A DNA stretch of 64,000 bases from Candidatus Wildermuthbacteria bacterium (GTDB lineage Bacteria; Patescibacteriota; Minisyncoccia; Minisyncoccales; UBA10102), in NCBI GenBank assembly GCA_016181405.1, contig JACOZJ010000004.1, forward strand, positions 5,479-69,478, written 5' to 3'. This document shows positions 12,235 to 63,839 of the stretch, piece after piece. The translations under genes were made by a program, and so were the position numbers. Every line of letters starts with the position of its first letter. Position 1 is the stretch's first letter. The notes below the pieces were generated by a model. That model saw only the letters and a list, made by a program, of their open reading frames with translations, ran no database searches and had not been told where the DNA came from.

Positions 12235-12235
12235 T

Positions 12236-14234: not shown

Positions 14235-14672
14235 TTATGGGGCACAAGTGGTCGTTGCAGCAGCACACACATCATTTCCTACTTGACCCGCAGAGCTTAC
14301 GCAGATAGTACCCGTGGAAGCAAGGGGAGCGGAAATACAGTAATCGTCGCCAACAGCGTAGCACGTTGGCGCTGTTCCTCCTTGAGTCTGAACATCACTT
14401 GCAATAGTTTGCAGCTGAGTGCCATACGTTGCATGCGCAGTATTCAAACCAGTTCCCGAACATGTGCTGTTATACTGAACAGGGCTTGACCCATTATATA
14501 TGAGTTCTGCAATTGACCTGGTCTGCTGCATTGCGCCCTGAATTCGGGCATCTCTTGCAGAGTCACGCGCGCCTCCCAATGAAACCAATACAATTCCTGC
14601 CAGCAAGCCGATAATCGCTATCACCACCAGCAACTCAATAAGTGTAAACCCCTTTTGTTTGTTGTTGAACAT
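14235..14672 (-). CDS. pilA: Type IV major pilin (PilA-like)
   Basis: MFNNKQKGFTLIELLVVIAIIGLLAGIVLVSLGGARDSARDA is a canonical prepilin leader G|FTLIE. C-terminal Cys pair ...VCAAATTTCAP. Last gene of the pilM-pilC operon, after a 97-nt spacer. Confidence 0.9.
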   Translation of the reverse strand: MFNNKQKGFTLIELLVVIAIIGLLAGIVLVSLGGARDSARDARIQGAMQQTRSIAELIYNGSSPVQYNSTCSGTGLNTAHATYGTQLQTIASDVQTQGGTAPTCYAVGDDYCISAPLASTGTICVSSAGQVGNDVCAAATTTCAP

Positions 14673-28541: not shown

Positions 28542-30649
28542 CATTATCTACTCCCATAGGGCAGGTTCCGCGCATTGGAGCTGCATACGAAGCAAAATTA
28601 AGGAAAATGGGGATCACTACTGTACGTGATCTTCTTTTTCATTTCCCGCGAACATACGTAGACTTTTCTACGATTACGCCAATCAGAGATCTTAAAGAGG
28701 GTGAAGTATATTGCGTTTCGGGGACACTACTCGATATCAAGGAAACTCGCACATTTCGCAAGCGAGTGTCTCTCATTACTGCTTTAGTGGAAGACAAAAC
28801 CGGCGCCATAAAAATTTTGTGGTTCAACCAGCCATATCTTGTGGATTCACTGAAACCCAAAGATGAAATTTATTTAGCGGGAAAGGTAGTGCGCGACAAA
28901 GAAGGCATATACATTTCAAACCCAGTTCACGAAAAAGCAGGAGGCGGCCTGTCTGCGCAGGCAGGAAAAAGTCTTACTCATGTGGGAAGAATTATCCCCG
29001 TATACCCAGAAACAATTGACGTTTCGTCGCGCTGGCTGCGTTCCATTATAAAAATGGTGTTGGCGCAGGTGAAAGAAATGCCAGAAACCCTACCGCAAGA
29101 AATGCTGCGAGAGCGAAATTTTATTCCTATTCAAAAAGCTCTTTGGCAAATCCACTTTCCAGATTCCATGGAGCAGGCGCAGCAAGCAAGCAGGCGTTTC
29201 TCATTTGAAGAACTGTTTTACATTCTGCTTTTTATCCTTGCAGAAAGGAAAAAAATTGCTCAAGTAAAAGCTCCTGTAATTCCGTTTGACGAAACTGTTA
29301 TGAAGCGATTTACCGGAAAACTTCCATTTCAGCTTACCGACGACCAAAAAAAGGCGGCTTGGTACATTTTAAAAGACATGGAAAAGCCCAGGCCCATGAA
29401 CCGCCTCTTAGAAGGCGACGTGGGGTCGGGCAAAACCGTAGTGGCTGCAATGGCAATGCTCTCTGCGGTAAAGGCAGGTTATCAGGCGGCACTCCTGGCA
29501 CCCACTGAAATTTTGGCGCAGCAGCATCATAAAACCGTAGCAAAAGTGCTCACGCCTTTTAAAATAACCATTGGCTTACTTACAGGAAAAACAGACCGTT
29601 TTATTTCTCCAAAACTTCCCAATGACTATATTGAAATTTCCCGCTCCAAACTGCTTGAGAAAGTAAAGAACAATGAAGTGCAGGTGCTTATCGGTACGCA
29701 TTCTTTAATTCAAGACACGGTAAAGTTTGGGAACCTGGCCTTGGTTGTGGTGGACGAACAGCATCGCTTTGGCGTAAAGCAGCGCGCGCGCTTACTCCAC
29801 AGAACAACTCTTATTCCGCACTTGCTTTCCATGACCGCAACCCCAATCCCGCGCACGCTGGCCATGACTTTATACGGAGATCTCGACCTTACCCTAATTA
29901 CCCAGCTTCCCAACGGAAGAAAACAAATAATCACTCGAGTTGTCCCGCCTGCGGGGCGCGAGAAGGCCTATGAAGCAATTGCAGAGCAGATAGCCCAGGG
30001 GCGGCAAGCCTTTGTTATCTGCCCGAGAATTGAACGCACCGAAAAATCGCCCAAGGACGTGGAAGTAAAAACTGTAAAAGAAGAATACGAAAAACTATCA
30101 AAAGAAATATTCCCCGACCTTAGGATAGAAATGCTTCATGGCAAAATGGCCACAAAAGAAAAAGAGGGAATAATGCGCAAGTTCAAGTTTGGGAAGATTG
30201 ATGTGCTGGTTTCAACGTCGGTCGTTGAGGTTGGGGTAGATATACCAAATGCCACTGTCATGATGATAGAGGGGGCAGACCGATTCGGCTTGGCGCAACT
30301 CCATCAATTCCGGGGAAGAGTCGGGAGAGCAGAACACCAATCATATTGTTTTTTGTTTTCAGAATCGAATTCTTTTTTCGCGCGCAAACGCCTTAAAGCG
30401 CTCGAAGAGTCATCGAGTGGTTTTGAGCTGGCAGAACGCGATTTGCACATTCGCGGTCCAGGAGATTTTGCCGGCACCAAACAATGGGGTATTCCTGATT
30501 TTGCCATGCAGCAGCTCACCAATCTTGAACTCGTGGAACAAGCCAGAGAAGCCGCAAAAATGATTCTCGAAAAAGATATTACGCTAAAAAACTACCCCCT
30601 CTTACGCGAGAAGGTAGCCGATTTTCGAGAAAGACTTCATTTGGAATAA
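28538..30649 (+). CDS. recG: ATP-dependent DNA helicase RecG
   Basis: 703 aa. Wedge/OB N-terminus, helicase motifs GDVGSGKT, VVDEQHRFGV, MTATPIPRTL and QLHQFRGRVGR. ATGA overlap with the SET gene. Confidence 0.93.
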   Translation: MTLSTPIGQVPRIGAAYEAKLRKMGITTVRDLLFHFPRTYVDFSTITPIRDLKEGEVYCVSGTLLDIKETRTFRKRVSLITALVEDKTGAIKILWFNQPYLVDSLKPKDEIYLAGKVVRDKEGIYISNPVHEKAGGGLSAQAGKSLTHVGRIIPVYPETIDVSSRWLRSIIKMVLAQVKEMPETLPQEMLRERNFIPIQKALWQIHFPDSMEQAQQASRRFSFEELFYILLFILAERKKIAQVKAPVIPFDETVMKRFTGKLPFQLTDDQKKAAWYILKDMEKPRPMNRLLEGDVGSGKTVVAAMAMLSAVKAGYQAALLAPTEILAQQHHKTVAKVLTPFKITIGLLTGKTDRFISPKLPNDYIEISRSKLLEKVKNNEVQVLIGTHSLIQDTVKFGNLALVVVDEQHRFGVKQRARLLHRTTLIPHLLSMTATPIPRTLAMTLYGDLDLTLITQLPNGRKQIITRVVPPAGREKAYEAIAEQIAQGRQAFVICPRIERTEKSPKDVEVKTVKEEYEKLSKEIFPDLRIEMLHGKMATKEKEGIMRKFKFGKIDVLVSTSVVEVGVDIPNATVMMIEGADRFGLAQLHQFRGRVGRAEHQSYCFLFSESNSFFARKRLKALEESSSGFELAERDLHIRGPGDFAGTKQWGIPDFAMQQLTNLELVEQAREAAKMILEKDITLKNYPLLREKVADFRERLHLE

Positions 30650-32179
30650 CTATTTTCGAAACTTTGGAGTGGACCAAAAACCCATATACTTGCCAAGCAG
30701 CAAACGGGTTTGGGCGTGCAAAGCCGGAACAGCGAAGAAAATCATAATAGGCGGCAAAAAAATCCACTGGAGAACGAGCCATGCGGTATGCCATTTTCCG
30801 TAATTGACCGGCCGCGGCGGAAGAAACAGCATGCTCAAAAAGGCAGACCAAACCAATCCAGCCATCATCACGGTTAGAATCCACGAAGTAAACCGCGGCA
30901 AGTTATATGAAAGGAGCGTCTGAGTGAATGCGTCTCCTCCGAGCACCAATGGCAGCCAACCCAAAAGAAATATAAGGATAGAAGTAGTTGCCCAAGACCA
31001 GTAGGACTCTATGCGATCGATGCTCAGGGAAATTTTCTTTGAAATAGGAATTTTTTTGTTCTGGAGAAAACCGTACAAAAAATACGGAATGTCGGCAGCT
31101 CCATACGCCCATCTCAGCTGCTGACGATAAATATTCTTTACCGTGTCCAGAAAGTTCGGTGCGACATTCGCATCCATGGATACAGGGTAATACAAAGCCT
31201 CCACAGAATAATTGCCGTCATAGTGCAGAAAGCATTGCCAGAAAATGCGGGAGTCATCCACCGCATAGTTTACCTGCCGGTATCCCACCTCAACCAGCGT
31301 TTTGAAAGGCATGGAGTGTGAAGAAAAAGTGCTCAATTTCTCGGGGCGTTCTTGGTTCATCAAAAACCAAAATGTGGTTGAAAAAGCGAATAGACGGGAT
31401 AGCACGGATGAAGACCATATGTTGTTTATAAACAAAGGAACCGGCTGGTAAGAACGGTGCAAAGGGTCCGGAGAGGTAAGATAATGGTATGTAAGACAAC
31501 TGAAGTATTTTGGGAATACCACCGTGTCTGCGTCCAACGAGGTAACAATAATTTTCTCTAACGGGATTGCGAGAGGATCGATAATATTTTCTTTCGCTAG
31601 CTTGACGGCCCAAGTTTCATTGGACCCCTTACCCGCTATTTCGCCCGGCAACCCAACGGGATGCACGGTCAGGAAAAACCGAAAAAAATCTTTCCCAAAC
31701 TCTTGTTCTATGAGGCGCGCTCTCTCTTTCGCGGCTTCACCCGCCTTCTCTTCAACCCCAAGCACCACAATCATCTTTTCTAAAGGATAGTCTGAATTGC
31801 GAAGAGCTCTAAATGTTTCCCGTAAGATCTCGACGGGCTCCTCGTACGTTGGCACGACTACCAAATGATATATTTCTTCCCACCCAGGAAGGCCTTTGAC
31901 TTTTGAAAACCAATCTACTTTTTCATGTTCTATTGTTTTCCTGTATCCTGAACGAAGATGAAATGCAAAGTAGAGCACTCGAAAAAACCAATACAAAATG
32001 AAACTTAAAATAAAGAAAGCTGCAAGCACAGGGAATAGCCACGAAGCCAAAAACGCAAAACCAAGCGTCCCCCATGCAGCAACCCCCGGGACCATCTCAA
32101 ACACTCTATACAAAAATCTGCCTTTTGGAGTATCCAGATCGGCGGCTCTTGCGGCAGTAAGATGAGCTGCTCTCGTCAT
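30650..32179 (-). CDS. Family-2 glycosyltransferase, processive membrane type (cellulose/chitin-synthase-like architecture)
   Basis: VVVPTYEEPVEILRETF, SLDADTV, QQLRWAYGA (QxxRW), with TM helices flanking on both sides. The ATG at 32179 forms an ATGA overlap with the upstream stop; the TTG at 32221 is less likely. Confidence 0.85.
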   Translation of the reverse strand: MTRAAHLTAARAADLDTPKGRFLYRVFEMVPGVAAWGTLGFAFLASWLFPVLAAFFILSFILYWFFRVLYFAFHLRSGYRKTIEHEKVDWFSKVKGLPGWEEIYHLVVVPTYEEPVEILRETFRALRNSDYPLEKMIVVLGVEEKAGEAAKERARLIEQEFGKDFFRFFLTVHPVGLPGEIAGKGSNETWAVKLAKENIIDPLAIPLEKIIVTSLDADTVVFPKYFSCLTYHYLTSPDPLHRSYQPVPLFINNIWSSSVLSRLFAFSTTFWFLMNQERPEKLSTFSSHSMPFKTLVEVGYRQVNYAVDDSRIFWQCFLHYDGNYSVEALYYPVSMDANVAPNFLDTVKNIYRQQLRWAYGAADIPYFLYGFLQNKKIPISKKISLSIDRIESYWSWATTSILIFLLGWLPLVLGGDAFTQTLLSYNLPRFTSWILTVMMAGLVWSAFLSMLFLPPRPVNYGKWHTAWLVLQWIFLPPIMIFFAVPALHAQTRLLLGKYMGFWSTPKFRK

Positions 32180-33655: not shown

Positions 33656-33832
33656 AAAAGACGCGTTGCGTCTTTTGGGGGTTTGCGCGCCCCGAGTCTT
33701 CGAGGGGCGAATAATGCAAATCCGGGGCCTCCTTTGGGAAACCGCTGAAAGCGAATAGTTTCACAAAGGAGGTTTCTTCGAAATTGTAGCCCAAAAATTG
33801 AAAAATGTAAAGAAAAAAGGTAGAAAAAATCT

Positions 33833-35098
33833 ATGCGAATTTTAGGCATTGAAACCTCATGCGATGATACGGGGATTGCTGTTTTAGAAGCGGGCAGGGG
33901 CTCGCATTTTCAGATTCTCTCAAACGTAGTGGCTTCGCAAATTGCTGTGCACCAAAAATATGGCGGCGTATACCCCATGCTCGCAAAACGCGAGCATCTG
34001 AAAAATTTGCCTATCGTTCTTAGAAGGGCACTCGGCAGTAGCCCCCGAAGCGAAGTTCGGGCTGGCCGTGGGTCGTGGTGGCGGACGAAGCGGAGGGAAC
34101 CACTGCCGAGCGATGCAAAATCCTATGGCATAACAGCTATTGCTGTAACGTATGGCCCCGGGCTTTCACCCTGCCTTTGGGCTGGCCTTAATTTTGCGCA
34201 GGACCTTGCGAAAAAATGGGGCGTTCCTCTTGTGCCAGTTGACCACATTGAAGGACATCTTCTCATCGGTTTGCTGAAAAATATACAAGATACAAAATAC
34301 CAGATACCAAATACAAGGGGCATATTTCCAGCTATTGCATTGATTGTTTCAGGCGGACATACGCAACTGGTGCTGGTAAAAGACATAGGCAAGTACGAAA
34401 TGATTGGAGAAACACGGGACGACGCTGCCGGCGAATGTTTCGACAAAACCGCCCGCATTCTTGGACTAGAATATCCCGGCGGACCTGCGATTGCCGAACA
34501 GGCCCGCCTATGGGGTGAGGACATGCTGCTTTCCGGGAAGCTCTCGGAGGCAGTTTGGCATGGTCCCGCCAAAGGCGGGCAAACGGCCGAGAGCGCAACC
34601 CCCGAGCGCCCGCTGGGGCGCGAGAGGGGTGACTCCCGGAAGCAGCATTCCGAACGACATAACATTCGACTACCGCGACCGATGATGCACACGAAAGACT
34701 ACGATTTTAGTTTTTCCGGACTCAAAACCGCAGTGCTGTATAATTATCAAGCGCGGCCCAAAAAAGAACGCGAGTCAAAAAAATATATCCAAATAATGGC
34801 AGCAGAAATCCAGCAAGCAATTGTGGACGTGCTTGTCCACAAAACCATTAAGGCCGCAAAAGAATATGGAGCAAAAACCATTATAATGGGTGGGGGCGTT
34901 GCCGCAAACGACGAACTCCGCAAACAGCTCGGCCAAAAAGCAAAAGATATGAATGCCGAATTTTTAGCTCCGTCTAAAAACTTAAGTACTGACAACGGCG
35001 CCATGATCGCGCTCGCTGGATATTTTCGGTATAAAGCGCACGATTACCCAAAAAACTCAGGCCAAATTGAAGCAAATCCAAATTTAAGAATCGCATAG
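33833..35098 (+). CDS. tsaD: tRNA N6-adenosine threonylcarbamoyltransferase TsaD, carrying three in-frame insertions
   Basis: MRILGIETSCDDTGIAV, HIEGHLL, VSGGHTQL, DDAAGECFDKTARILGL, FSFSGLKTAV and STDNGAMIA. It is 421 aa against about 340 aa for characterised TsaD. Confidence 0.92.
   Translation: MRILGIETSCDDTGIAVLEAGRGSHFQILSNVVASQIAVHQKYGGVYPMLAKREHLKNLPIVLRRALGSSPRSEVRAGRGSWWRTKRREPLPSDAKSYGITAIAVTYGPGLSPCLWAGLNFAQDLAKKWGVPLVPVDHIEGHLLIGLLKNIQDTKYQIPNTRGIFPAIALIVSGGHTQLVLVKDIGKYEMIGETRDDAAGECFDKTARILGLEYPGGPAIAEQARLWGEDMLLSGKLSEAVWHGPAKGGQTAESATPERPLGRERGDSRKQHSERHNIRLPRPMMHTKDYDFSFSGLKTAVLYNYQARPKKERESKKYIQIMAAEIQQAIVDVLVHKTIKAAKEYGAKTIIMGGGVAANDELRKQLGQKAKDMNAEFLAPSKNLSTDNGAMIALAGYFRYKAHDYPKNSGQIEANPNLRIA
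34031..34110. repeat. GC-rich ~80-nt element with 9-bp terminal inverted repeats, in frame inside tsaD
   Basis: ctcggcagt (34031-34039) ... actgccgag (34102-34110), with an internal hairpin gcccccgaa/ttcgggc. Encodes roughly SSPRSEVRAGRGSWWRTKRREPLPS, which is absent from E. coli TsaD at this position. Confidence 0.6.
34281..34318. repeat. Heptamer-periodic module (ATACAAG/ATACCAA units) in frame inside tsaD
   Basis: atatacaagatacaaaataccagataccaaatacaagg encodes NIQDTKYQIPNTR between the HxEGH and VSGGHT motifs. Confidence 0.65.
34523..34648. repeat. GC-rich 126-nt nested-hairpin element with ~15-bp terminal inverted repeats, in frame inside tsaD
   Basis: atgctgctttccggga (34523-34538) pairs with tcccggaagcagcat (34634-34648). 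Nested pairs: gctctcgg/ccgagagc and cccgcc-aaa-ggcggg. Encodes about 42 aa (MLLSGKLSEAVWHGPAKGGQTAESATPERPLGRERGDSRKQH) absent from reference TsaD. Confidence 0.65.
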
Positions 35099-40040: not shown

Positions 40041-41717
40041 TTACCGCTGGAGCACTCGCTGGAACGAGAGCTCACACCTTGGCACTTGAGCAATGCTTTC
40101 CTCGGGCTCTACGCGAACCTCAAAGGAGGCAGTGCCCCTTTGTGCAATAAGCACCTTTTCAGACAGCGACTTCTCGTCGCCATCCACAAAGATGGTTGTC
40201 CTGCCTTTCTTGAAAGAGCAAGACACACTCTGTATCCGTACAGACTGATCTTCGCTTGCTCTGTTCTCCAGGCTCCCCGAGAACACGACCTCAAGTTCTT
40301 TCTCGTCGACTCGCAAGAACTGCAAGTTCATTAGCGAGGAGGGTTCGAGGGTTTCTGGAACCCTGATGTTTTGAGCCACGAGCAGCGACTCAATCAGCGT
40401 GCCCGACCCCGTCTTCACATCTACAAACACTTTTTGGATTTGAAACGGGGCTACTCCAGAAGGCACGCTGATTATACCCAGCACTATTGTTTCCCCCTTT
40501 GGAATGGAAAACGTGTGCCCCTCCTGAATCTCAACGAAAGCAGGGAGTACCCGCATGACAACTCGTGCATCCCCCCGCTTCGTTACAAACCGCCAGACCA
40601 ACATACGCTCAAGTTCCCTTTCTGACGGATTGTTCAGCACCACCTGGACAGACAAGGGGCTACCCGGCAACAAATCCACGTTGTCTGCCACATTTATAAC
40701 CCGCGCCCCGGGCACTACAAACAGAGGCGTTGGTGTGGGAACCGGCGTGCTCGTCGGCGTGGGAGTAGCTGGAGGAACTGTTGGCGTTGGTGTTGGTGTC
40801 GCTGTCGGCGTTGCGCTCGGCGTGGGCGTCGCAAAGGGGATAACGGTAGGCGTAGGCGAGGGAGTTGGAGTCGGGGTAGACGTAGGCGCCGAGATCGGCG
40901 TTGGCGCTGGCAAAACCACAAACTTCATCTCACCCTTGCATCCACTTTCTCCAATCACCACGGTAATATCATCAATCACCGCACCCCAGTGGGATCCGCC
41001 ACCCACTCCTTGAAACTTCAAACGCGAGGTAACTTCCTGTGCCGTAAGCCGATACCCTTGATAAACCCACCCCATCTGGCTGGGAGAACGCCCCGTTGTG
41101 TCAACCGCAATACGGTCAACCAATAGAGCATTCCACCACACCTCCATCACCTTTATGGAATCTCCTCCGCTAGGGTTGCCGGAAAGCGCGAAGCAAACCT
41201 CATAGATCTGCCCAGGAGTCGTTGCAAACTCCCGGGCGATTGCGCCTGCGCTCCAGCCATGGATATCGAGGGATTGTCTACCCCTAGCTGCCTTCCAAAA
41301 AGACCCGACAAAGTCTACGCTTCCCTCAACTGTCCATCCTCCAACGAGCCCACCATCAAACGATATCCATCGGTCACCCGCAAAGGGGATCTCGAAGTCT
41401 TCGTAAAGAATGACGTTGCTCGGGAGAGGCATCGGCAACAACGAATGAATAGAGGGGAGCGGCGTTGGGGTTGGCGTAGGCGTTGGCTGCGCGACGACAA
41501 TATGCCTCCGATACTGCTGTGTTGGAGTCGGGGTTGGCGTTGGCGTTGGCCATGCCAGAAGAATATGGGTAGGCGTGGGAGTTGGAGTTGGAATTCGGGT
41601 TGATCCGCCAGGTGGCGAAGGGGTTGGCGTAACTACCGTACAACCCAACCCCAATATTGCCATAGCAAGCGCCATACTCAATACGCCGAGTATCTTCCTC
41701 ATGGGAAGTCTCCTCAA
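40041..41717 (-). CDS. GC-rich lipoprotein with Pro/Thr linkers and a DUF642 / choice-of-anchor-C-like lectin-fold domain
   Basis: Lipobox-like LGLGCTV. Two PTPTPTP linker tracts. The central segment [47 protein letters not shown]...GAVIDDITV resembles DUF642. The C-terminal ~230 aa are unassigned. Confidence 0.7.
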
Positions 41718-41801
41718 ACAAAATGTGCTGGGACTAAACCAGTGTTACAACAACTTCCTTATTTTGTCAAGAAAAACGCGCGAACAAAGAAGAGCGCTTT
41801 A

Positions 41802-45076: not shown

Positions 45077-45118
45077 AAAACAAAACAAACCCCGCCCTTC
45101 GACTACGCTCAGGGCGGG
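45077..45118 (-). terminator. Rho-independent terminator after paralog C
   Basis: cccgccct-(12 nt)-agggcggg. On the minus strand it is followed by gtttgttttgtttt. Confidence 0.7.
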
Positions 45119-45744: not shown

Positions 45745-46680
45745 TTAGGGACCAAAGATGCTTCTGACAGCCACAAACACTCCCTTCGAAAGCACTGCCA
45801 GCGCCAGCCCTATAGCAGTCCACAAGAACAGTTTTTTTGCCGTAGCCAGCCGGGTCGGATCGCCTCCTGCAGTCAAGAGCATCGTAGCGCCAATAAGAAC
45901 CATGAGGGTCGCTATAAGCAGTGCGATAACAAAAATCCAATTGCCGATATTCTCCAGCATAGCCATGAATTCGGCAGCGCTAAAAGTCGGGAGAGGAGAT
46001 GCCGCCGGAGGCGGGGGCGGAGGGGGTGGTGGCGGGGGCGGAGGGGGTGGTGGGGGATCAATAACGCTTGTAGCCAAAAACTGCCAGCTGCTTATGCCGA
46101 CCATAAAGTTCATATCAAAAGTGGCGCAGGATCCAGCGCCCAGGTTAAAACCCCTAAGCGCCATTCCATCCGTGTTATCTGCGCGCCAATCCCAAAACGT
46201 TGAAAGATTCCCTCCCGCAAGGACATATGTATCCGCACCCACACCGACAGGATCATCCCATACTGCAATTGATGCGCCCCCGGGAATTCCAGAAGCCGTA
46301 AGCCTTGCTTGGCCGATGGTGGCATTCGCATTTCGCCTGTCAAGCACAATTACAAGACTTACAACATTAAACGTAGTATCGCGATGAAGATACATGATGC
46401 TCCCGTCTGAAACAGAAGGGGCCAAAGCATCTCCATTGTAGCTGGCTGCTGAATAATTGTACCTCGAGGCTACGCCCTGAGTGTCGTCGATTGCCGAAAG
46501 CCACTTTAATGCAGTACCGCCTTGCCGAATTTCCCATTGGTTAGCACCCACTCCGCAAAGCTCAAGCGGCTCACCCATCGTTAAGGGAATACTTGTCTGC
46601 GCCTGCGCTGGAGAGGGCAAAAATCCCAAAGCGAAAACTGCTGTTGCGAAAACGACAGGAAAAAGAAGTTTCTTTTGCAT
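45745..46680 (-). CDS. Secreted protein: unknown N-terminal domain, poly-proline spacer and C-terminal VirB2/TrbC-like two-helix module (paralog D)
   Basis: ATG at 46680 (MQKKLLFPVVFATAVFALGFLPSPAQA). An 18-residue Pro run is followed by FMAMLENIGNWIFVIALLIATLMVLIGATMLLTAGGDPTRLATAKKLFLWTAIGLALAVLSKGVFVAVRSIFGP. Confidence 0.7.
   Translation of the reverse strand: MQKKLLFPVVFATAVFALGFLPSPAQAQTSIPLTMGEPLELCGVGANQWEIRQGGTALKWLSAIDDTQGVASRYNYSAASYNGDALAPSVSDGSIMYLHRDTTFNVVSLVIVLDRRNANATIGQARLTASGIPGGASIAVWDDPVGVGADTYVLAGGNLSTFWDWRADNTDGMALRGFNLGAGSCATFDMNFMVGISSWQFLATSVIDPPPPPPPPPPPPPPPPPAASPLPTFSAAEFMAMLENIGNWIFVIALLIATLMVLIGATMLLTAGGDPTRLATAKKLFLWTAIGLALAVLSKGVFVAVRSIFGP
46010..46051. repeat. 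Perfect tandem duplication of a 21-bp unit encoding poly-proline
   Basis: ggcgggggcggagggggtggt occurs twice on the plus strand and encodes most of the P18 tract of paralog D. Confidence 0.9.
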
Positions 46681-46682
46681 AG

Positions 46683-49025
46683 CTAAATTCCGAGAATTCC
46701 CTTGAGAACTTCGACCAATCCTTTGGAAATCAAGATAATGCCGAATCCGACAATAGTCCACAAAAGCATGCGGCGGGCGGTTGCCACTTTGCTAGGGTCT
46801 CCGGCCGCGGTCATAAAGATAACGCCAGCAATAACCAGCAGAATCGGCGCCACGATTACTGCTAAAGTAAAGAGAAAATTAATAATCCTGTTGATGAGGT
46901 CAGTGAACGATGTCGCGCCCAACGGATTTGGAAAAGTAAATACCCCTGCTCCAGGCGTAGGTGTAGCTCCAGATGTAGGAGTAGGTGTAGCTCCGGGCGT
47001 AGGCGTAGCTCCAGATGTAGGCGTAGGCGTAGCCCCTCCTGCGACAGTAATTGTTCGCGGCGTATTCGCGAATCCACCCACTCCATCAGTAATAATTAAT
47101 GTTGCAGTATAAGTGCCAACAGCGGAATAGGTATGCTGAACCGTAAAATCGCATGCAGGATCAACCGTACTAAGACAGCTGGCGCTATCTCCAAAATTCC
47201 AAGTAACAATCGTACCTGGGGTTGATCCGGTTGCGTCAAAGTTGACAACGAGCGGAGCAGGTCCGCTCGCAGGGCTCACGGTGAAAGTAGCGGTAAGCGC
47301 TGAAGTACCAGTACCTGAAACTGGAGTCGTTACAGTTATGGGGGCAAAAGGTCCTGGTGTTTGTACTGTCACCGTTTCATTGTAGGAAACGAGGGCTGTC
47401 GGGTTAAATGTAATGGCAACGTTCAGAGTTGCCCCCGGCGCAATAAGAGGCCAAGGGCCAAGCGGAACTTGAAATACAGAAGGATTACTACTGCTAATAC
47501 TTGTGATCGTAACGTTGCTCGCGCTCGTATTCGTAATAGTAAGAGTTTTGGGAAGAGAAGCAGTGCCCACTGCCTGGCTTCCAAAAGCGAGACCACCAGC
47601 AGGGCTTAATGTGATAGGAGCCCCACCGCCGGACACCGTAAATGTCTTATGAGGAGTAAATTCATCTGTATTGCCCATGCTATCCATTGCAACTGCCCAA
47701 TATTCAATCGTTATCCCTGCAGGAAACGGACCTGCCGGGGAAGAAGTGTATGAAGCACTTGTGCCAGTACCAATACAACTTGGCAGACCGCCTCCGATTG
47801 CACAGGTTGCATTGAGAACAGTAGCTCCCGTATCCGTCCTCTTTGCCAAAAGGTTAATAGCATTCATGTTGTTATCAGGATCGACAGCTGTGGCCGAAAA
47901 TGTTACTTGCTGCGTCGCATTTGGCGGATCAGGATTTGCGGTTACAGTACTCACATTAGGGGATGATCCCCCAGCAGGAGTCACGGTAAATGTTACCGAA
48001 ACATTCTGGCTTCCGATAGAACCTCCTGTGCTCGCGTCTGTCGCGGAAACGGTTATGGTCGCATTGTATGATCCCGCGGCGAAACCAGTAGGGTTAGCGC
48101 TCACAGCTCTTCCTTGAAACCCTCCTCCTGGCACTGGTATCGTGGAATTTAGAGGTGGTGTAATTTTGAGCCAAGTAGCGCTTGCGGGTGCTACAGACAT
48201 CACCCAGTTTAGCTCTCCTCCCCCCGTGTTTTGAATTTCGAGGAACTCTGCGGCAGTCTCCAACCCTCCCTCTATCGCAGAAAATACAAACGATGAGCTG
48301 CTCGGAGGAATATTAAGAATTGGGGAAGGAGAGCCCGGAACCACCGTAAAGGATGCGACAGGAGTAAACGCCCCATTCCCAACCAAATCTCTTGCGGTAC
48401 CATAATAGTTGTAGGTTCCGGCAGCCAAAGTTCCTACTATAAGTCCACAATTACCTGACGCACACGTCTTACTCTCTCCAGGATCAGCAAAAAAGCCATT
48501 TCCATTGAGGTCGACGAATATGCGCGTCTCCCCCCCGAGCATCCCACTTCCACCCGGATTATCATTTGCTGTAGTGATTAAAGAAACTGAATCTGCGGTC
48601 GTTGGATTGAGGGGACCATAAGCCGCTGAAACGGTCGGATCTGTAAAATCAATGCTGAAAAAACGGCTGTCTTCTGAAAAAGTCCCACCGGAAGACTCTG
48701 ATATCGCGGTTATCTTGCAGGCATCGACACCCTCGACTCTGCAATCCCGCCCCGCGCCCACAGTAACACCGAGGCTCGAGTTAGGAGTACGTGCGCTAAA
48801 AGGCACCGTAAGCATCATGCCATTGTAGATCTCATAATAGGCACGTACCGTTCCCATTGGGTCACTTATGGAAACATTGAACCCCGCGGGTCCCTGCCAT
48901 GAACTTGCGGCTGGCGAGTCAAAAACTGGGTGTACCACTTGTGCGGCGACGGACGAAGGAAATAAAGCGAAAACAAAAATAGCAAACGAAAGTCCGAACA
49001 ATGCGAAAAAAGATTTTGAAACCAT
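46683..49025 (-). CDS. Large secreted multi-domain protein (Ig-like/PKD domains), Thr/Pro linker and C-terminal VirB2/TrbC-like two-helix module (paralog E)
   Basis: Signal peptide from ATG 49025 (MVSKSFFALFGLSFAIFVFALFPSSVAAQ); the longest ORF starts at 49082. PKD-like FTVSPASGPAPLVVNFDATGS...HTYSAVGTYTATLIITDG. C-terminus FTDLINRIINFLFTLAVIVAPILLVIAGVIFMTAAGDPSKVATARRMLLWTIVGFGIILISKGLVEVLKGILGI. Confidence 0.75.
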   Translation of the reverse strand: MVSKSFFALFGLSFAIFVFALFPSSVAAQVVHPVFDSPAASSWQGPAGFNVSISDPMGTVRAYYEIYNGMMLTVPFSARTPNSSLGVTVGAGRDCRVEGVDACKITAISESSGGTFSEDSRFFSIDFTDPTVSAAYGPLNPTTADSVSLITTANDNPGGSGMLGGETRIFVDLNGNGFFADPGESKTCASGNCGLIVGTLAAGTYNYYGTARDLVGNGAFTPVASFTVVPGSPSPILNIPPSSSSFVFSAIEGGLETAAEFLEIQNTGGGELNWVMSVAPASATWLKITPPLNSTIPVPGGGFQGRAVSANPTGFAAGSYNATITVSATDASTGGSIGSQNVSVTFTVTPAGGSSPNVSTVTANPDPPNATQQVTFSATAVDPDNNMNAINLLAKRTDTGATVLNATCAIGGGLPSCIGTGTSASYTSSPAGPFPAGITIEYWAVAMDSMGNTDEFTPHKTFTVSGGGAPITLSPAGGLAFGSQAVGTASLPKTLTITNTSASNVTITSISSSNPSVFQVPLGPWPLIAPGATLNVAITFNPTALVSYNETVTVQTPGPFAPITVTTPVSGTGTSALTATFTVSPASGPAPLVVNFDATGSTPGTIVTWNFGDSASCLSTVDPACDFTVQHTYSAVGTYTATLIITDGVGGFANTPRTITVAGGATPTPTSGATPTPGATPTPTSGATPTPGAGVFTFPNPLGATSFTDLINRIINFLFTLAVIVAPILLVIAGVIFMTAAGDPSKVATARRMLLWTIVGFGIILISKGLVEVLKGILGI
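46948..47040. repeat. Tandem ~45-bp repeat encoding the (SGATPTPGATPTPT)x2 linker of paralog E
   Basis: ccaggcgtaggtgtagctccagatgtagga... is repeated with few changes. The protein reads GGATPTPTSGATPTPGATPTPTSGATPTPGAG. Confidence 0.8.
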
Positions 49026-49082: not shown

Positions 49083-51572
49083 CTATACGCACGCGGCAGA
49101 GGCCACCTTATCACCGGACTCCAATTTCATAATGCGCACTCCTTGTGTGGAGCGGCTGATTTTCGGGATAGAATCAATTGCTGTCCGGATAACATGGCCC
49201 TGCCGGGAAATTACGATAAGATCTTCCTCTCCTTCTTCTTCTCCTCCCAGCACCCGCGCATAAGCCACTTCTCCGGTTTTAGAAGTAATATTCGCAGTTT
49301 TAATGCCAGATCCTCCACGGCCCTGCAGTCGGTACTCTTTGATATCTGTCCTCTTGCCGTAGCCGTTCTCCATAACCACTAATACAAACTGCTCTTGTTT
49401 CGGATTTCGTGCTTCGGATTTCGGATTTTGAATGACATCCATTCCTACGACCTCATCTCCTTTCTTTAGGCGAATCGCCCGTGTTCCGGCGGCGCTCCTT
49501 CCCATTGAGCGCACATCCTTTTCTTCGAACCGCACTGACTGGCCCTTTTTTGTAACGATAATCATTTCATCCTCTCCCGTGGTTTTCCGTACGGTCTTCA
49601 GCCCGTCGCCTTTCTTTAAGGTTATCGCAATAAGCCCATTGCGGCGCACGTTCTTGAAATCCTCCAGCGGAGTTTTCTTGATAATGCCGTTTTTCGTAAT
49701 CATCGCTAAGTATTTTACGCCCGCGGCCGCATCTTCCTTGCCCAAAGCAAAAGCCGACATCACTTTGTCTTCGGAGCTCATCTCAAAGAAATTCAAAAGC
49801 CCTCTTCCCTTTGACACCCGCGTACCTTCTGGAATTTCATATGCAGCCGCCCGAAACACTTTTCCTGAATCGGTAAACACCAAGAGAGAATCGTGCGTTT
49901 CCGCGAATAAAAAGTGCTCGACAATATCGTCCCCTGTTGTTTTCAGGCCAATAATTCCTTTCCCTCCTCTCTTTTGAATCTTGTACGCGGAAGGATTAAT
50001 GCGTTTAATGTATCCGCCCTGAGTAATAGTAATAATAGTGTCTTCCTGCGGAATAAGATCTTCTTCCGCGATTTCCCCTATGCCCTGCACCATTACCTTT
50101 GTTCTGCGTTCGTCTCCAAAAATTTGCTCAGCCTCCGCCAGCTCTTTTTTCAAAACGCCGTCTATTTTCTTGGGACTTGCCAAAATGGCAGACAGCTCCT
50201 TGATTTTTTCCCGAATCTCCTTAAGCTCATCTTCAATTTTCTGGCGCTCCAAACGGGCCAGCTGAGCCAAACGAGTATCCAAAATCGCGTTCGCCTGAAT
50301 TTCCGTCAGGCGGAAACGCTTCATTAAGTTTATTTGGGCATCTGCTCGGTCTGACGCTCGGCGGATAATGCGAATTACTTCGTCAATATTTTCCAAACAC
50401 TTGTGCAACCCCTCCAAAATATGCTCCCGCTCTTTGGCGCGCTCCAATTCGTATTTGGTGCGGCGCGTAATTACCTCTCTCCGGTGTTCAATGAAATAGT
50501 GCAAAATCTCAACCAAAGAGAGCACCTTGGGCTGCAAACCGTCCACCAAAGCGATCATATTCAGGTGAAACGATTTTTGCAGATCGGAAAACTTATAGAG
50601 ACGGTTTAAAATCTTCTGGGGTTGGGCTTCCCGCTGCAAATCGAACACAATGCGCAGGCCATCTTTGTCTGATTCGTCGCGAATATCTCTAATGCCGTCG
50701 ATTTTCTTGTCTCCTACGAGTTTCGCGAACTGCTCCACCAGCGAGGACTTGTTCACCTGATAAGGAATTTCGGTAATGATAATTTGCGTTTTCTTGCCCT
50801 GAGTTTGTCGAAGGGTCTTCTCGCCACCATCTACGATATCGGCTTTACCGCGCATGGTAATAGGGCCTCTCCCTTGCGAATAGGCTTCAATAATCTCTTT
50901 TCTGTTGTAGATAATGCCCCCTGTTGGGAAATCCGGCCCCTTGATGAACTCAAAAAGATCTTCCGTTGCCGCTTCCGGGTTGTCGATAAGGTACACGGCA
51001 GCATCCAGAATCTCCCGAATGTTGTGAGGAGGAATATTTGTAGCCATCCCCACCGCAATGCCCAATGTTCCATTGAGAAGAAGCTGGGGTAAGGGCGATG
51101 GAAGCACGACGGGCTCTTTTCGGGTGCCGTCGTAATTGTCCATGAAATTCACGGTATCTTTGCCGATGTCTTGGAGCATTGCTTCTCCTACGCGCGACAT
51201 TCTTGCTTCTGAATAACGCATTGCCGCCGGCGGATCCCCGTCTATGGAGCCGAAATTCCCTTGGCCGTCAATTAAAGGATAACGCATGGAAAAGTCTTGG
51301 GCCATGCGCACGAGGGAATCGTACACCGCCACATCTCCGTGCGGGTGGTAACGCCCCAAACAGCTTCCCACAACCGTCGCGCATTTTCGGTACTTGGCTC
51401 CATGCGTAAGCCCGTCTTCCTGCATGGCAAAAAGAATACGCCGGTGTACGGGTTTCAATCCGTCGCGCACGTCTGGAAGCGCGCGCGCCACTATCACCGA
51501 CATTGCGTAGTCGATGTAGGAGCCGCGCATCTCCTCTACGATTTCTCTTGGCTCTACTTTATTGTTCTCCAT
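49083..51572 (-). CDS. gyrA: DNA gyrase subunit A
   Basis: 829 aa. [33 protein letters not shown], the active-site region [10 protein letters not shown], and a C-terminal beta-pinwheel. Confidence 0.95.
49397..49430. repeat. Heptamer-periodic module (GGATTTC units) in frame inside the gyrA C-terminal domain
   Basis: gtttcggatttcgtgcttcggatttcggattttg encodes (minus strand) [14 protein letters not shown]. Confidence 0.65.
50796..50816. repeat. Short hairpin motif CCCTGAG-N4-TCGAAGGG in frame inside gyrA
   Basis: gccctgagtttgtcgaagggt encodes TLRQTQG on the minus strand. It has the same arms as the terminator hairpin at 45094-45115 (its reverse complement reads ccctgagcgtagtcgaaggg). Confidence 0.55.
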
Positions 51573-52546: not shown

Positions 52547-53710
52547 ATGCTAAAGACAATCAATCCGCCCTTAGTTGGCGAAAAACCAAGACTCGATCTT
52601 GTAAAGCCGTTCCGGATAGGAGATCTCGTGGAAGGTCAAGTTTTAGGCATTGGCCGCTCCGCGGTGTATTTGGATTTGGGCCCGCAAGGAACTGGCATTA
52701 TTTATGGCCGGGAGTTTTTGGAAGAGAAAGCCGCGCTCAAAGAAGTCACGCCCGGAGAAAAGATAGTGGCAAAAATTGTTGATTTGGAAAATGATGAAGG
52801 TTATATTGAGCTCTCGCTCCGGGAAGCAGGAAGAGAACTCACTTGGGATAAGCTTAAGGAAAAGAAAGAAAAGGAAGAGGTGCTCAAAGTAAAAATTATC
52901 GGGGCAAACAAGGGAGGCCTTTTGGCAAACCTGCATGGCACACAAGCCTTCTTGCCGGTTTCCCAGCTTGCGCAAGAACACTATCCGCGCGTGGAAGACG
53001 GAGATTCCTCGAAAATCCTCCGCGCGCTGCAAGCGTTTATCGGCCAGGAGCTGGAACTGCAGATTTTCGACTTAGATCCTCGAGAAGGGAAAGTCATTCT
53101 TTCTGAACGCTCCGGAGAACGGGCAAAACTCAAAGAGCAGTTGGCGCGTTTTCAGGTGGGTGATGTTGTTGAAGGAGAAATTACAGGAGTAGTTGATTTT
53201 GGCGCATTTATCAAATTCCCGGTAGGCAAAGCAGATGAAGAATCTATTGAGGGGCTCATTCACATTTCGGAAATTGACTGGCAAATTATTGAAGACCCAG
53301 CGCAAATCCTGAAAGTGGGTGACAAGGTCAAGGCAAAAATCGTTGATCTTTCCCAGGGCCGTGCCTCTCTTTCTCTCAAGGCCTTAAAAGAAGACCCATG
53401 GCGAGAAGCAGAAAAAAAATACAGCAAGCTAAGCACCGTGAAGGGAAAGGTTACTAAGTTGAATCCTTTTGGCGCGTTTGTAGAGATTGAGGAAAAAATT
53501 CAAGGATTGTGTCACATCTCGGAGTTTGGCACGAAGACAAAAATGGAAGAAGTGCTGAAGCCTGGGCAAACCTACGCCTTTCAGATTTTGGAGCTCAATC
53601 CTGCCGAACATCGAATGAGTCTTCGCCTCGCGGCAGAGAGCGCATCAAATACTGCCTCAACACCAGAATCACAGCCGCAAAAAGAAGAGCAACCAGAAAC
53701 GCCCGAATAA
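52547..53710 (+). CDS. rpsA: 30S ribosomal protein S1 (four S1 domains)
   Basis: Repeated S1/OB motifs: GDLVEGQVLGIGRSAVYLDLG, VGDVVEGEITGVVDFGAFIKF, GKVTKLNPFGAFVEI. Low-complexity acidic tail. ATG at 52547. Confidence 0.88.
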   Translation: MLKTINPPLVGEKPRLDLVKPFRIGDLVEGQVLGIGRSAVYLDLGPQGTGIIYGREFLEEKAALKEVTPGEKIVAKIVDLENDEGYIELSLREAGRELTWDKLKEKKEKEEVLKVKIIGANKGGLLANLHGTQAFLPVSQLAQEHYPRVEDGDSSKILRALQAFIGQELELQIFDLDPREGKVILSERSGERAKLKEQLARFQVGDVVEGEITGVVDFGAFIKFPVGKADEESIEGLIHISEIDWQIIEDPAQILKVGDKVKAKIVDLSQGRASLSLKALKEDPWREAEKKYSKLSTVKGKVTKLNPFGAFVEIEEKIQGLCHISEFGTKTKMEEVLKPGQTYAFQILELNPAEHRMSLRLAAESASNTASTPESQPQKEEQPETPE

Positions 53711-54359
53711 AGACGGGGTCCCCAACAGCTTGGAAGAAAGAAGCCCAGACCGGCTCCTTTTTTGTTTCGTCCATAACGGCTAACGAATTTTGGTTTAATG
53801 TTACAAACTTCTCTTTGCCAAACAAACTGTTCTGTGCCTTCGGCGTTCCGCCCGTGTTCTTGCTTGAACCCCAGTTTTCCTCGTCTGCTGCCGGGCGATC
53901 CGGGAATCTTCGCTCCATAGTAAGTTTCAAATCATTGTCACCGCCATACCAGCCGCTCCCGGCATCAATTTCTTCTACTACAGTGCCCGAAGCATCTTTC
54001 AACACAACGTGCTGCCCAGGATTTTTGAATTTTCCTGCAAGCGTCGCATAATTTATATTTACTCCCGGAATTTTATCTGAAGCTCCCACCAAAAAATAGC
54101 CATTTGCTGGCACGCTTCCATATAGCACAATCGTAAAATCCAATCCGCCAGCTGGCGGACCTGAATACAATTCAATACGCCACCCCTGCACAAAAACTGT
54201 TTGTTCGCCAGCATTATACAGTTCTATCCATTCGTATCGCCACTCCTGTTTTGCATCCACCCCCTCCACCGGCACCCCCATCCACGCAATTTCATTGATG
54301 ATAATCTGCCCGAAAGCAACAGAAGGCAGTAGGAGTAAAACAGCAAATAGGAAAATCAT
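53595..54359 (-). CDS. Lamin-tail-domain (LTD) protein with signal peptide and C-terminal TM anchor
   Basis: MIFLFAVLLLLPSVAFG then IIINEIAWMG...EWIELYNAGEQTVFVQGWRI (LTD signature). C-terminal TM AFLVALLFAAVILVL. ATGA overlap with the vapC stop. Confidence 0.8.
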   Translation of the reverse strand: MIFLFAVLLLLPSVAFGQIIINEIAWMGVPVEGVDAKQEWRYEWIELYNAGEQTVFVQGWRIELYSGPPAGGLDFTIVLYGSVPANGYFLVGASDKIPGVNINYATLAGKFKNPGQHVVLKDASGTVVEEIDAGSGWYGGDNDLKLTMERRFPDRPAADEENWGSSKNTGGTPKAQNSLFGKEKFVTLNQNSLAVMDETKKEPVWASFFQAVGDPVFIRAFLVALLFAAVILVLRQYLMRSLPRGEDSFDVRQD

Positions 54360-55166: not shown

Positions 55167-56636
55167 ATGGACTCAAATTTCTCCAATGGCTGGCGATCGC
55201 TGGTCCCAACACTCTCAGATATTCTTCAAAAAATGCAGGAGAAAACAATTATTGGATTTGGCCTAGTGCCCTACCCGCGCATTGTTCCTGCTCTTTTTTT
55301 ACAAAACTATGTTGTTTACGCCGTAAAGGATACTGCTGATCTCGATGTCTTGCGGCCGCATGCAAAAATTTTCTGCCTTGAGGAAAAATTTCCGAAGGCC
55401 GCGGCAAAAATTCACGCGGCAAGCTATCTCTTGGGAAACTACGCCTTCCATGCTTTTTTGAAATCACGGCGCCAGCCGTTCCATTTGCTTATGCATCGCA
55501 CCACAGAACCGATTATCCAGAAACTCGAGGAGCATAAACTCGACTGGCTGGGGAATCGACCGGAAAGCTTTCAAGGCGTATGGCTGAAAACAGATTTTTA
55601 TAAAGTACTACACGCAGCACAACTGCCATATATCGAAACTGTGAGATTAGGCCGAGAAGAAATCGCAGGGAAGACGTTTTCCGAGTTCAATGTCAAATGG
55701 CAGCAGCCCATGGTTGCTTATCGAGTCTTTCCTCAAACAGGCATGGAGCAAAGCCCTTTTATTCTTTTAGACGAAGATGATTGGGAAGATATGCGCCAAA
55801 CGCTCTCGCTTGATGAAAAATACAGTGAGATACAAATTTCTCCGATTGTTCGAGGCATTTCTTTGTCTATGGTAGGGTGCGTTACTCATCTGGGCGTCCT
55901 TACTTCGCCTCTCCAGCTGCAGTTTCACAACGTGCCGGAAGTCCTTCATGGAGAAGACCCCAGCAGACTTTCATTCGGCCAAGATTTTGGATTTTGCAGC
56001 TGGGATGACCATATCGAAAAGAAAGCTCAAGAAATAACAGAGAAGGTGGGAGAATTTCTTTCAACTAAAGGGTTCCACGGAATCTTTGGCGTTGACTTTC
56101 TGTACAACACGGAGCAGCAAAAGATTTTTGCCACCGAATGCATGCCGCAATTTACCGAAGATCTCCACATCTATTCGTTAATGACTATGGCGCATAACAA
56201 TGTGCCCCCGCTCGAATTCTTCCATATTATGGCAACCCTCGGCCTGAAAGAAAAATTCGACTTCGCCAAGGCCAACGCGCAACTTAAAAAGCGGTTTCCT
56301 GCTTCACACATCTTTCTTCTCCAGAAAGGGATAGAAACAATGCCCATTCCTCTTCGAGCAGGAGTTTATTCGTTCTCCCCAGAGAACCGCGGCCTTACGT
56401 ATCTGCGCGAAGGAGCGTTTCCTTGGGATTTAAAAAACGAGTCAGAATTTCTCATGCTCGATTCCATGCCTCGATACCAGCAAAAGGTTATTGATAACGT
56501 TCCCAGTCTTTTCAAACTCATTTTCCCACGTTCCATCGCCGAATCTTCCTCCAAAGTAAAGCCAGATGTAGGGGAATTAATAGCTATGCTCTCCCAAGCT
56601 CTCCGCGAGGAAGAAGGGTTGACAGAAACCCAGTAA
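55167..56636 (+). CDS. ATP-grasp-like protein, paralog 1 (divergent catalytic motif)
   Basis: 489 aa and roughly half identical by eye to the ORF at 57634-59115. ...FHGIFGVDFLYNTEQQKIFATECMPQFT occupies the place where paralog 2 has the ATP-grasp ECNPRFT. Confidence 0.7.
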   Translation: MDSNFSNGWRSLVPTLSDILQKMQEKTIIGFGLVPYPRIVPALFLQNYVVYAVKDTADLDVLRPHAKIFCLEEKFPKAAAKIHAASYLLGNYAFHAFLKSRRQPFHLLMHRTTEPIIQKLEEHKLDWLGNRPESFQGVWLKTDFYKVLHAAQLPYIETVRLGREEIAGKTFSEFNVKWQQPMVAYRVFPQTGMEQSPFILLDEDDWEDMRQTLSLDEKYSEIQISPIVRGISLSMVGCVTHLGVLTSPLQLQFHNVPEVLHGEDPSRLSFGQDFGFCSWDDHIEKKAQEITEKVGEFLSTKGFHGIFGVDFLYNTEQQKIFATECMPQFTEDLHIYSLMTMAHNNVPPLEFFHIMATLGLKEKFDFAKANAQLKKRFPASHIFLLQKGIETMPIPLRAGVYSFSPENRGLTYLREGAFPWDLKNESEFLMLDSMPRYQQKVIDNVPSLFKLIFPRSIAESSSKVKPDVGELIAMLSQALREEEGLTETQ

Positions 56637-57540: not shown

Positions 57541-57592
57541 AAACCCGGGGGAACGACAATGCGAAAGCAAAGTCGTTCTCCCCCGGGTTTTT
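57541..57592 (+). terminator. Rho-independent terminator after the GC-rich orphan
   Basis: aaacccgggggaacgac-(loop)-gtcgttctcccccgggttt followed by tttt. Confidence 0.8.
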
Positions 57593-57633
57593 CATTTCAT
57601 TGAGTTTTGCCTTTTGGTATAGTAAAACAACGT

Positions 57634-61599: not shown

Positions 61600-61605
61600 C
61601 CCACA

Positions 61606-63528: not shown

Positions 63529-63542
63529 TATGCATGCGCGGG

Positions 63543-63610: not shown

Positions 63611-63641
63611 CGGGATACATTGAGAACTTTGTGATAGCTAT

Positions 63642-63803: not shown

Positions 63804-63839
63804 CCCTTCTCCGCCAGCTGGCGGATCACAGCAAACCAA

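Follow-up and report, generated by a model that had tools for sequence, protein, structure and literature searches.

The tsaD gene in the 64,000-nt stretch of DNA under study, which comes from a tiny Parcubacterium living in groundwater (the window, to whose positions all plain coordinates refer), was found to carry two G+C-rich segments, here termed element 1 and element 2, and the comparisons reported below support both as in-frame, stop-free insertions in variable surface loops of the encoded protein, the presence or absence of which is polymorphic among orthologs. Hairpin elements were shown to occur both in genes and in spacers, without being restricted to one orientation or one frame. 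The best explanation, to which we assign a probability of roughly 0.6, is that G+C-rich, self-complementary hairpins insert at the DNA level and that several low-copy, dispersed families of them, resembling miniature transposable elements with inverted repeats (MITEs) and Rickettsia palindromic elements (RPEs), circulate in Parcubacteria (Wildermuthbacteria and relatives), whereby surface loops tolerate their presence. Throughout, L-numbers denote other contigs or loci and P-numbers the TsaD and other proteins that were compared; the coordinates of the main features are collected in Table 1.

Two insertions in the tsaD gene

A first-pass annotation of the window had described tsaD as an open reading frame (ORF) lengthened by two G+C-rich in-frame inserts, and this was confirmed by the Pfam match (Table 1), by alignment with Thermotoga TsaD (6nak) and by the ortholog alignment. 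TsaD structures from the PDB match the window protein at E = 5e-69, the TsaD of a metagenome-assembled genome (MAG) held at NCBI (P0001, MBI2098602.1, on a 114-kb contig) is 100% identical to it, and its nearest relatives come from Candidatus Wildermuthbacteria (Parcubacteria). At elements 1 and 2 the G+C content reaches a local peak of 0.70-0.75 versus 0.48 window-wide. As compared to the Thermotoga protein, the additional residues locate between Tm residues 68/71 and 186/192, insertion points which sit between secondary-structure elements. In the AlphaFold2 model (mean pLDDT, the predicted local confidence, 83.7; core >90) values below 50 are confined to residues 70-88 and 237-273 and to the last three residues, 419-421; hence both inserts are predicted to be disordered surface loops outside the ASKHA core, which is the outcome of the structure mapping that the first-pass annotation had proposed. 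Within an alignment of 24 TsaD orthologs, also proposed there, the element-1 peptide was found in the window protein alone and the element-2 peptide solely in P0001, P0002, P0003, P0005 and P0010, the linkers of the remaining aligned orthologs being short or unrelated at both insert sites. Presence/absence polymorphism was thus seen for both inserts, and the orthologs do not share the peptides, a finding which the first-pass annotation had named as speaking against mobility had it been otherwise. That both elements are free of stop codons was likewise correct but turned out to be uninformative, since five of the six frames are open in element 1 and in element 2.

The ends of the element-2 core as first delimited carry ATGCTGCTTTCCGGGA and TCCCGGAAGCAGCAT, which pair with one bulged base, and enclose the nested pairs GCTCTCGG/CCGAGAGC and CCCGCC/GGCGGG; all these repeats, like those reported for element 1, are present where they had been placed, but the element boundaries derived from them required revision. 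RNAalifold revealed that the pairing of element 2 continues into what had been regarded as linker, hence the larger extent given in Table 1, and the net insertion at element 1 was found to be smaller than its hairpin (see below). The full unit is built as a three-way junction; its outer stem holds GA/GA internal loops, and a closing stem of 15 bp and a pair of arms complete it. The core folds with a minimum free energy of -83.3 kcal/mol (z = -6.6; none of 200 shuffles folds as well); the fold of element 1 is ordinary for its composition (z = -0.47). Structural conservation was assessed with five sequences coming from four lineages or loci: 94.6% of the cells are paired across the five copies, and 11 of 56 pairs changed on both sides yet still pair, as compared to 3.4 +/- 1.4 pairs in shuffles (none of 500 reaching this number) and 0-2 in slid controls. 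When the tsaD copies are taken by themselves, 8 of 94 paired core columns vary versus 11 of 35 unpaired ones (Fisher p = 0.0036), and the variable columns distribute over the codon positions as 7:3:6. Because pairs covary, unpaired columns vary more and codon positions show this spread, element 2 is, as judged from the aligned sequences, a segment which evolves as structured nucleic acid and not as part of a protein.

The more stable strand of element 2 is the same in all five copies (-87 to -91 versus -77 to -86 kcal/mol with RNA parameters), and its orientation relative to host transcription varies by locus. In L007, to whose lineage the tsaD copies of L015 and L016 also belong, the distal hairpin is swapped as a whole for another perfect hairpin, with a gain of 3 nt. 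This is the sole indel among the tsaD copies, and frame 0 is open in every tsaD copy and closed in an intergenic one; open frame and 3-nt length change would fit read-through translation of the element. Element 2 would moreover provide a clean case of a non-coding structure whose evolution is constrained by base pairing even though it is translated. In scans with Rfam 15, tRNAs alone reached the gathering threshold in the window, no credible match at E <= 10 was obtained for 33980-34720, and no intron family was found in the window.

A codon-aware alignment of five contigs gave element-2 identities between tsaD genes of 0.87-0.92 at the nucleotide level and of 0.88-0.90 at third positions; in the remainder of tsaD the respective values are 0.61-0.66 and 0.36-0.44, the latter being saturated. 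The 60-codon flanks of element 2 show a third-position identity of 0.42-0.55, equal to that of genes without the element, and co-transfer of flanking sequence together with element 2 by recombination was hence ruled out, as flank identity is not raised. When the inserts were masked and 70 TsaD sequences arranged in a neighbour-joining distance tree, the bearers of element 2 were spread over three separate clades, each with element-free sisters, and the element occupies the same tsaD site in these three non-sister clades. The empty allele of L004 is about 88% identical to the window tsaD, and here the whole linker differs, no precise excision being visible. A side observation concerns L009, a 2-kb tsaD contig whose 5' half is 100% identical to the element-free L004 and whose 3' half is 100% identical to L001; it represents either a natural recombinant or a chimeric assembly.

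Copies of element 2 outside tsaD were sought in several ways. Six-frame element-2 peptides matched TsaD alone among 5.8 billion proteins, and genome and metagenome scans with 20-21-mers returned full copies in tsaD only, plus four chance matches. An exhaustive HMMER search with the 50-residue element-2 peptide led to P0121, a 33-residue 'protein', the contigs of which hold an element-2 homolog at L022:4990-5137, in the 187-nt rpsG-fusA spacer of a Candidatus Wildermuthbacteria genome. This homolog is antisense to the str operon, and its frame 0 is interrupted by a stop. It shares 73-79% identity with the tsaD copies and adopts their three-way-junction fold (-89.4 kcal/mol); the element-2 copies share their ends with one another. 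The adjoining EF-Tu (OHA64878.1) and one element-2-bearing TsaD (OHA64750.1) have accessions only 128 apart, and because of this the spacer copy and an element-bearing tsaD probably reside in one MAG. Covariance models R1 and R2, run over 150-167 kb, yielded no additional copy, nor did L024 and L025, short contigs from other samples that are 100% identical to the window where they overlap it (L024 adds about 4.6 kb past the window start, L025 lies wholly within the window). Viral contigs and a phage collection contained no match to the elements. Element 2 was recovered from independent JGI, ENA, Logan and NCBI assemblies, with lineage-specific variants and compensatory changes.

Element 1 is bounded by perfect 9-nt inverted repeats, CTCGGCAGT (34031-34039) and ACTGCCGAG (34102-34110). 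Inverted repeats of 9 bp within 120 nt number 44 in the window versus 28.6 +/- 6.3 expected; since such repeats are common and the fold is ordinary, the status of element 1 as an insertion is established from relatives and not from the repeat. At 85-92% identity, L001, L004 and L009 lack it, as do 23 of 23 other aligned orthologs, and it is the absence from those close relatives that marks it as recent. Compared with them the net insertion amounts to just 60 nt (20 codons, about 34034-34093), because the 3' arm of the hairpin, ACTGCCGAG, is host sequence that is found in empty alleles as well. Host CGAGGACTACTGCCGA, likewise found in empty tsaD alleles, reappears as its reverse complement in the 5' arm extended by a few bases (TCGGCAGTAGCCCCCG). 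A 52-nt core within element 1 recurs in the site-2 insert of TsaD P0011 (L019:728-798), where 17/17, 10/10 and 18/18 nt are identical, in another genome, at a different tsaD site and in a different reading frame. Both copies have a rod with GAA/GAA-type internal loops as common fold; six outer-stem pairs are changed on both sides, and the arms are not common. The first-pass annotation had taken the repeats to be the ends of the element. By these comparisons the 'terminal inverted repeat' of element 1 was instead built from the target and is no transposon end. Further copies of the core were found neither in the window, with a mismatch-tolerant search, nor in related loci, viral contigs or the phage collection, and its six-frame peptides matched TsaD alone among the 5.8 billion proteins, the power of this search being low for so short a core.

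Two further observations concern the gene itself. A reading of the inserts as inteins or self-splicing introns was discarded, as inserts of 20 and 50 codons are too small and the frame is kept; for an intein, in addition, the residue following ...HN is Ile and not Cys, Ser or Thr. At tsaD site 3 (34262-34315) low-complexity ATAC(C)AA-like repeats encode KNIQDTKYQIPNTR, and the loop at this site differs widely in length and sequence among orthologs, hairpins of the short families described next being present there in L001 and L021.

Short palindrome families and other features of the window

Two families of short palindromes, P1 and P2, were delineated besides the tsaD inserts. P1 is a perfect 16-nt palindrome, TCCGCCAGCTGGCGGA, with five exact occurrences in about 155 kb, although even an exact 14-mer would be expected only about 0.0005 times in 64 kb (arithmetic from sequence length alone). 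Two of the five lie in the window, one of them in frame in a 254-residue ORF which we take, from its sequence alone, to encode a lamin-tail-domain-like protein. The others are at L001:10403-10418 (tsaD site 3) and at L021:11027-11042 and 14395-14410, located near the tsaD C-terminus and in valS, where it adds three residues. Two distinct tsaD sites thus carry P1, which is translated as SASWR or PPAGG according to the frame. A stretch of 26 nt is common to the P1 region of ORF 53595..54359 and the L001 tsaD site-3 insert.

The P2 family (CCCYGAG-N4-6-CGARGGG) gave four regular-expression hits in the window, three of them compact, versus 0.53 expected. The copy in gyrA falls within a 6-8-residue loop insertion relative to solved GyrA structures, and L021 has an almost identical hairpin, read in frame as TLRQNSG, at its tsaD site 3 (10392-10411) and another P2 hairpin upstream of tsaD (9837-9856). 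Spacers of both L021 and L020 hold more P2 copies, and in L020 the tsaD site-2 insert contains a variant with one mismatch. Hairpins of this form had been cited in the first-pass annotation as related to the tsaD elements. They do exist in the spacer upstream of tsaD, in the terminator and in gyrA, but are to be regarded as a separate family, a relation to element 1 or 2 being not demonstrable from the sequences. The heptamer CCCCGAR is not enriched in the window (19 versus 18.4 expected), and CCCCGAR, CGAAGC, GCGAAGC and GTAGCCCC were all rejected as motifs uniting the elements, none of them being enriched; therefore the hairpin families are treated as separate. Where the window was aligned with L001, over about 17 kb, three of three in-frame coding indels contain G+C-rich palindromes, and an 18-nt near-palindrome is inserted in frame in recG.

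Table 1. Positions of tsaD, its two insertions and the short palindromes in the window
Feature	Position	Strand	Remarks
tsaD (tRNA t6A37 threonylcarbamoyltransferase)	33833..35098	+	421 amino acids; Pfam PF00814, E = 1.8e-75; host of elements 1 and 2
Element 1 hairpin	34031..34110	+	9-bp closing stem around GA-rich irregular stem-loop
Element 1, conserved core	34045..34096	+	52 nt; CCGAAGCGAAGTTCGGG..GGCCGTGGGT..TGGCGGACGAAGCGGAGG
Element 2, core as first delimited	34523..34648	+	126 nt, 42 codons
Element 2, full structured unit	34511..34660	+	150 nt = 50 codons; from RNAalifold and covariance models
P1	54144..54159		in frame in 254-residue ORF 53595..54359 (-), read as GPPAGGL
P1, second exact copy	63810..63825		intergenic, directly after tRNA-Val
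P2 hairpin CCCCGAG-TCTT-CGAGGGG	33690..33707	+	tRNA-Glu/tsaD spacer
P2 hairpin CCCTGAG-CGTAG-TCGAAGGG	45095..45114	-	nested in terminator-like stem
P2 hairpin CCCTGAG-TTTGT-CGAAGGG	50797..50815	+	inside gyrA (- strand gene), read as TLRQTQG
18-nt near-palindrome CCTGTCTGCGCAGGCAGG	28948..28965	+	in-frame insertion in recG relative to 92%-identical L001

Some further features of the window were recorded in passing. Upstream of tRNA-Leu (63541-63610) two neighbouring strong hairpins are found, GCCGAAGCCAA..TTGGCTTCGGC and GGGCGATTT..AAATCGCCC, the second of which holds GCGAAGC; for the fold of the G+C-rich island surrounding them (63532-63614) z is -3.7. In gyrA, large inverted repeats (51277-51450) were set aside as probably due to chance. 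A 275-residue ORF at 56681-57508, with a G+C content of up to 0.76 and no Pfam match, lies between paralogous genes coding for about 490-500 residues (55167-56636 and 57607-59115) and is followed by a strong hairpin (57541-57590); it looks like a foreign insertion, and as a separate ORF this block was rejected as a hairpin insert. Another G+C-rich stretch of 107 nt (45969-46075, peak G+C 0.88 in 50-nt windows) has an unexceptional fold (z = -0.9) and is located inside ORF 45745..46761 (-), which encodes a protein with a C-terminus similar to pilins of type IV secretion systems (T4SS). The 558-residue DUF642 gene at 40041-41777 is missing at the syntenic L001 position; conversely, around 30651-30657 the window has none of the DUF642 and PBP genes which L001 holds at this site. 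ARAGORN identified a tRNA-Ile with anticodon TAT (UAU) at 61526-61601; to our knowledge this anticodon is uncommon in bacteria, where AUA is usually decoded by a lysidine-modified CAU tRNA.

Explanations for the hairpin insertions

If hairpins of several low-copy families insert at the DNA level, the copies surviving within genes would be those in frame, free of stops and placed in a surface loop, and in TsaD they would be transcribed and translated as disordered loops (about residues 68-93 and 227-276). The hairpin of element 2 would presumably be kept for its own propagation, as is the case for REPINs, attC sites or IS200-type ends, and not for TsaD. Element 2 may have reached the same tsaD linker of three unrelated lineages by entry or by exchange, owing either to a site preference or to DNA uptake combined with short-tract recombination. 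Beyond window position 1, L024, which is identical to the first 3.4 kb of the window, encodes DprA and a Mg-chelatase/AAA+ protein (L024:3154-5566; PF13541, PF01078, PF13335) that we take to be ComM-like; by their sequences, these genes point to a capacity for DNA uptake and recombination. In element 1, a 52-nt core would have been imported and inserted recently, and the closing stem made from an inverted copy of neighbouring host sequence; this suggests a step of template switching or fold-back and not a cut-and-paste transposon whose ends are fixed.

Several points weigh against an interpretation as dispersed mobile hairpins. A second copy of element 1 or 2 was found neither in the 64-kb window, searched with BLASTN, nor in about 167 kb of related sequence, and with peptide and 20-21-mer scans giving full copies in tsaD alone, the elements are far less numerous than a mobile family would lead one to expect. 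Neither a target-site duplication nor a clean empty site nor an associated transposase was seen, the tree supporting the polyphyly of the element-2 bearers is a simple neighbour-joining tree and as such weak, and L009, which was used in the comparison, may be chimeric. A total absence of further copies, which had been named beforehand as something that would disprove a mobile family, is not the case, given the rpsG-fusA homolog and the L019 core copy.

The strong structural covariation, finally, fits a functional RNA equally well. Element 2, and perhaps element 1, could be a structured RNA acting within the tsaD message in a cis-regulatory, processing or protein-binding role, with its coding capacity being a by-product. 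The very stable fold (z = -6.6), the 11 covarying pairs with substitutions mostly in unpaired positions, the same strand being stabler in five of five copies, and G-U pairs and GA/GA internal loops that favour this one strand are all in keeping with such a role. We nevertheless regard it as quite unlikely: the rpsG-fusA copy is antisense to its operon, which argues against a common cis-regulatory role in host messages, and no common orientation to host transcripts exists. Most orthologs do without element 2, including the sister allele that is about 88% identical, there is no Rfam match and no promoter or terminator context, and element 1 is absent from near-identical strains. The conserved structure would be more easily explained by the propagation of the element itself.

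Also considered was that the hairpins arise locally by replication or repair errors such as template switching, fold-back priming or quasi-palindrome correction, and hence represent a mutational signature and not mobility. The 5' arm of element 1, being an inverted copy of adjoining host sequence, is what this process would leave behind, and so is the recG insert, which resembles inverted and direct copies of the adjacent GCAGG; the wholesale replacement of the distal element-2 hairpin in L007 by another perfect hairpin (+3 nt) and the palindromes in three of three in-frame coding indels relative to L001 fit in as well. This origin is unlikely, however, since local errors cannot make the same sequence appear at unrelated loci and in separate genomes, as documented by the element-1 core of 52 nt recurring in another genome, by the fivefold exact 16-mer P1, by the 26 nt common to ORF 53595..54359 and the L001 tsaD, and by the 150-nt element-2 homolog at another locus; templated copying from a distant donor would itself be mobility. 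A further view takes the inserts as lineage-specific protein loops selected for TsaD function, for instance for partner binding in a reduced t6A machinery, the hairpins being incidental to Arg/Gly/Pro/Ser-rich coding. Preservation of the frame, the +3-nt indel included, and the tolerance of many different inserts at both sites in other orthologs would agree with it. It is held to be very unlikely given that a third-position identity of 0.88-0.90 and the 7:3:6 spread leave no protein-level signature, that the loops are predicted to be disordered, that the intergenic homolog has a stop in the frame concerned and that L019 reads the element-1 core in a different frame. An artefact of chimeric metagenome assembly or of a sequencing construct can practically be dismissed, since despite the possibly chimeric nature of L009, with its L004-like 5' half and L001-like 3' half, element 2 was obtained from independent JGI, ENA, Logan and NCBI assemblies with compensatory changes, and all copies are in frame.

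A more far-reaching idea is that element 2 constitutes a new class of strand-specific, structure-dependent mobile hairpin of the candidate phyla radiation (CPR), i.e., a three-way junction of about 150 nt that acts as a non-coding 'homing' element and spreads from genome to genome by entering a conserved linker of an essential gene. It might move through single-stranded DNA processing by an HUH-type or other enzyme, or by DNA uptake with short-tract recombination, and elements 1, P1 and P2 might result from the same machinery building closing stems from the target; in this specific form the idea is speculative and improbable.

The tiny genomes of CPR bacteria (Patescibacteria) are usually portrayed as containing little mobile DNA. 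Should in-frame insertion of hairpin elements in essential genes (tsaD, gyrA, valS, recG) be routine, these elements would be one source of lineage-specific protein loops in the CPR, a marker of recent DNA exchange between lineages and a trap for annotation and alignment. The occurrence of element 2 at one site in unrelated lineages moreover raises the question of a site-specific spread without an encoded enzyme.

Comparison with known systems

The original account of RPEs is reportedly that of Ogata et al. (2000). The elements reported here are akin to RPEs in their palindromic potential, in their location in spacers and, in frame, in unrelated housekeeping genes, in the use of peptide sites which the fold tolerates, and in their presence or absence between related genomes. 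In those passages of a later publication that deal with them, RPEs are given as being about 100-150 bp long, residing in spacers and in frame in housekeeping genes, and as multi-copy, with 44 integrations in R. conorii, each family encoding a conserved peptide in one frame (PMC10969869). The present elements, in contrast, are very low-copy; unrelated lineages have element 2 at one and the same tsaD site, and the frame in which the element-1 core is read is not constant. Furthermore, element 1 has outer arms that lack conservation and stem in part from the host, no similarity to RPE sequences exists and the phylum differs. The proposal of the first-pass annotation that an RPE-like family inserts in frame in this genome thus received partial support, in that copies exist elsewhere and hairpins lie in frame in gyrA, valS, tsaD and ORF 53595..54359, but a family that is low-copy and not abundant has to be assumed.

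A second point of reference is the REP/REPIN-RAYT system, with its IS200-like Y1 transposases. Imperfect hairpins that are kept by covariation and one strand that folds better are common to both, whereas REPs are extragenic and abundant. In L001, the interval from tsaD to valS holds (11243-12770) a gene for a RAYT-like Y1 transposase (NF047646, 27 bits, below cut-off) together with a SWIM zinc-finger gene; the palindrome GGGCTAGGACSGTCCTAGCCCAA, present three times, brackets the two in a REP/RAYT-like arrangement. This block is missing in the window, where valS follows directly after 35098. The REP-like palindromes of L001 (GGGCTAGGACSGTCCTAGCCC) are absent from the window at up to three mismatches and are unrelated to elements 1 and 2, P1 and P2; due to this absence the RAYT-flanking palindromes were rejected as source of the window elements. 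No RAYT gene was noticed in the window, whose ORFs had no systematic transposase screen.

The optional G+C-rich clusters in yeast mitochondrial var1 offer a further parallel, their unidirectional gene conversion reportedly having been demonstrated genetically by the Butow and Perlman laboratories (1980s-1990). These clusters are likewise short, G+C-rich and palindromic, lie in an A+T-richer genome in frame in an essential protein gene, vary from one strain to another and invade empty alleles at the same site; they differ in being mitochondrial, about 46 bp long and present in many copies per genome. Prokaryotic MITEs (ERIC, BOX, Nezha and others; PMC10969869) are similar in that they are non-autonomous, structured and sometimes fused in frame with ORFs, but theirs are conserved terminal inverted repeats, target-site duplications and related insertion sequences, none of which was found here. 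Element 1 and the L019 copy share a core but not arms, so that common terminal inverted repeats are lacking, and no direct repeat flanks either element beyond palindromic AT. In the full-text library searched, no description of in-frame palindromic or hairpin elements in CPR/Patescibacteria genes was found, and what would be new here is the occurrence of RPE/MITE-like in-frame hairpin elements in a new phylum, together with the unusual features outlined above.

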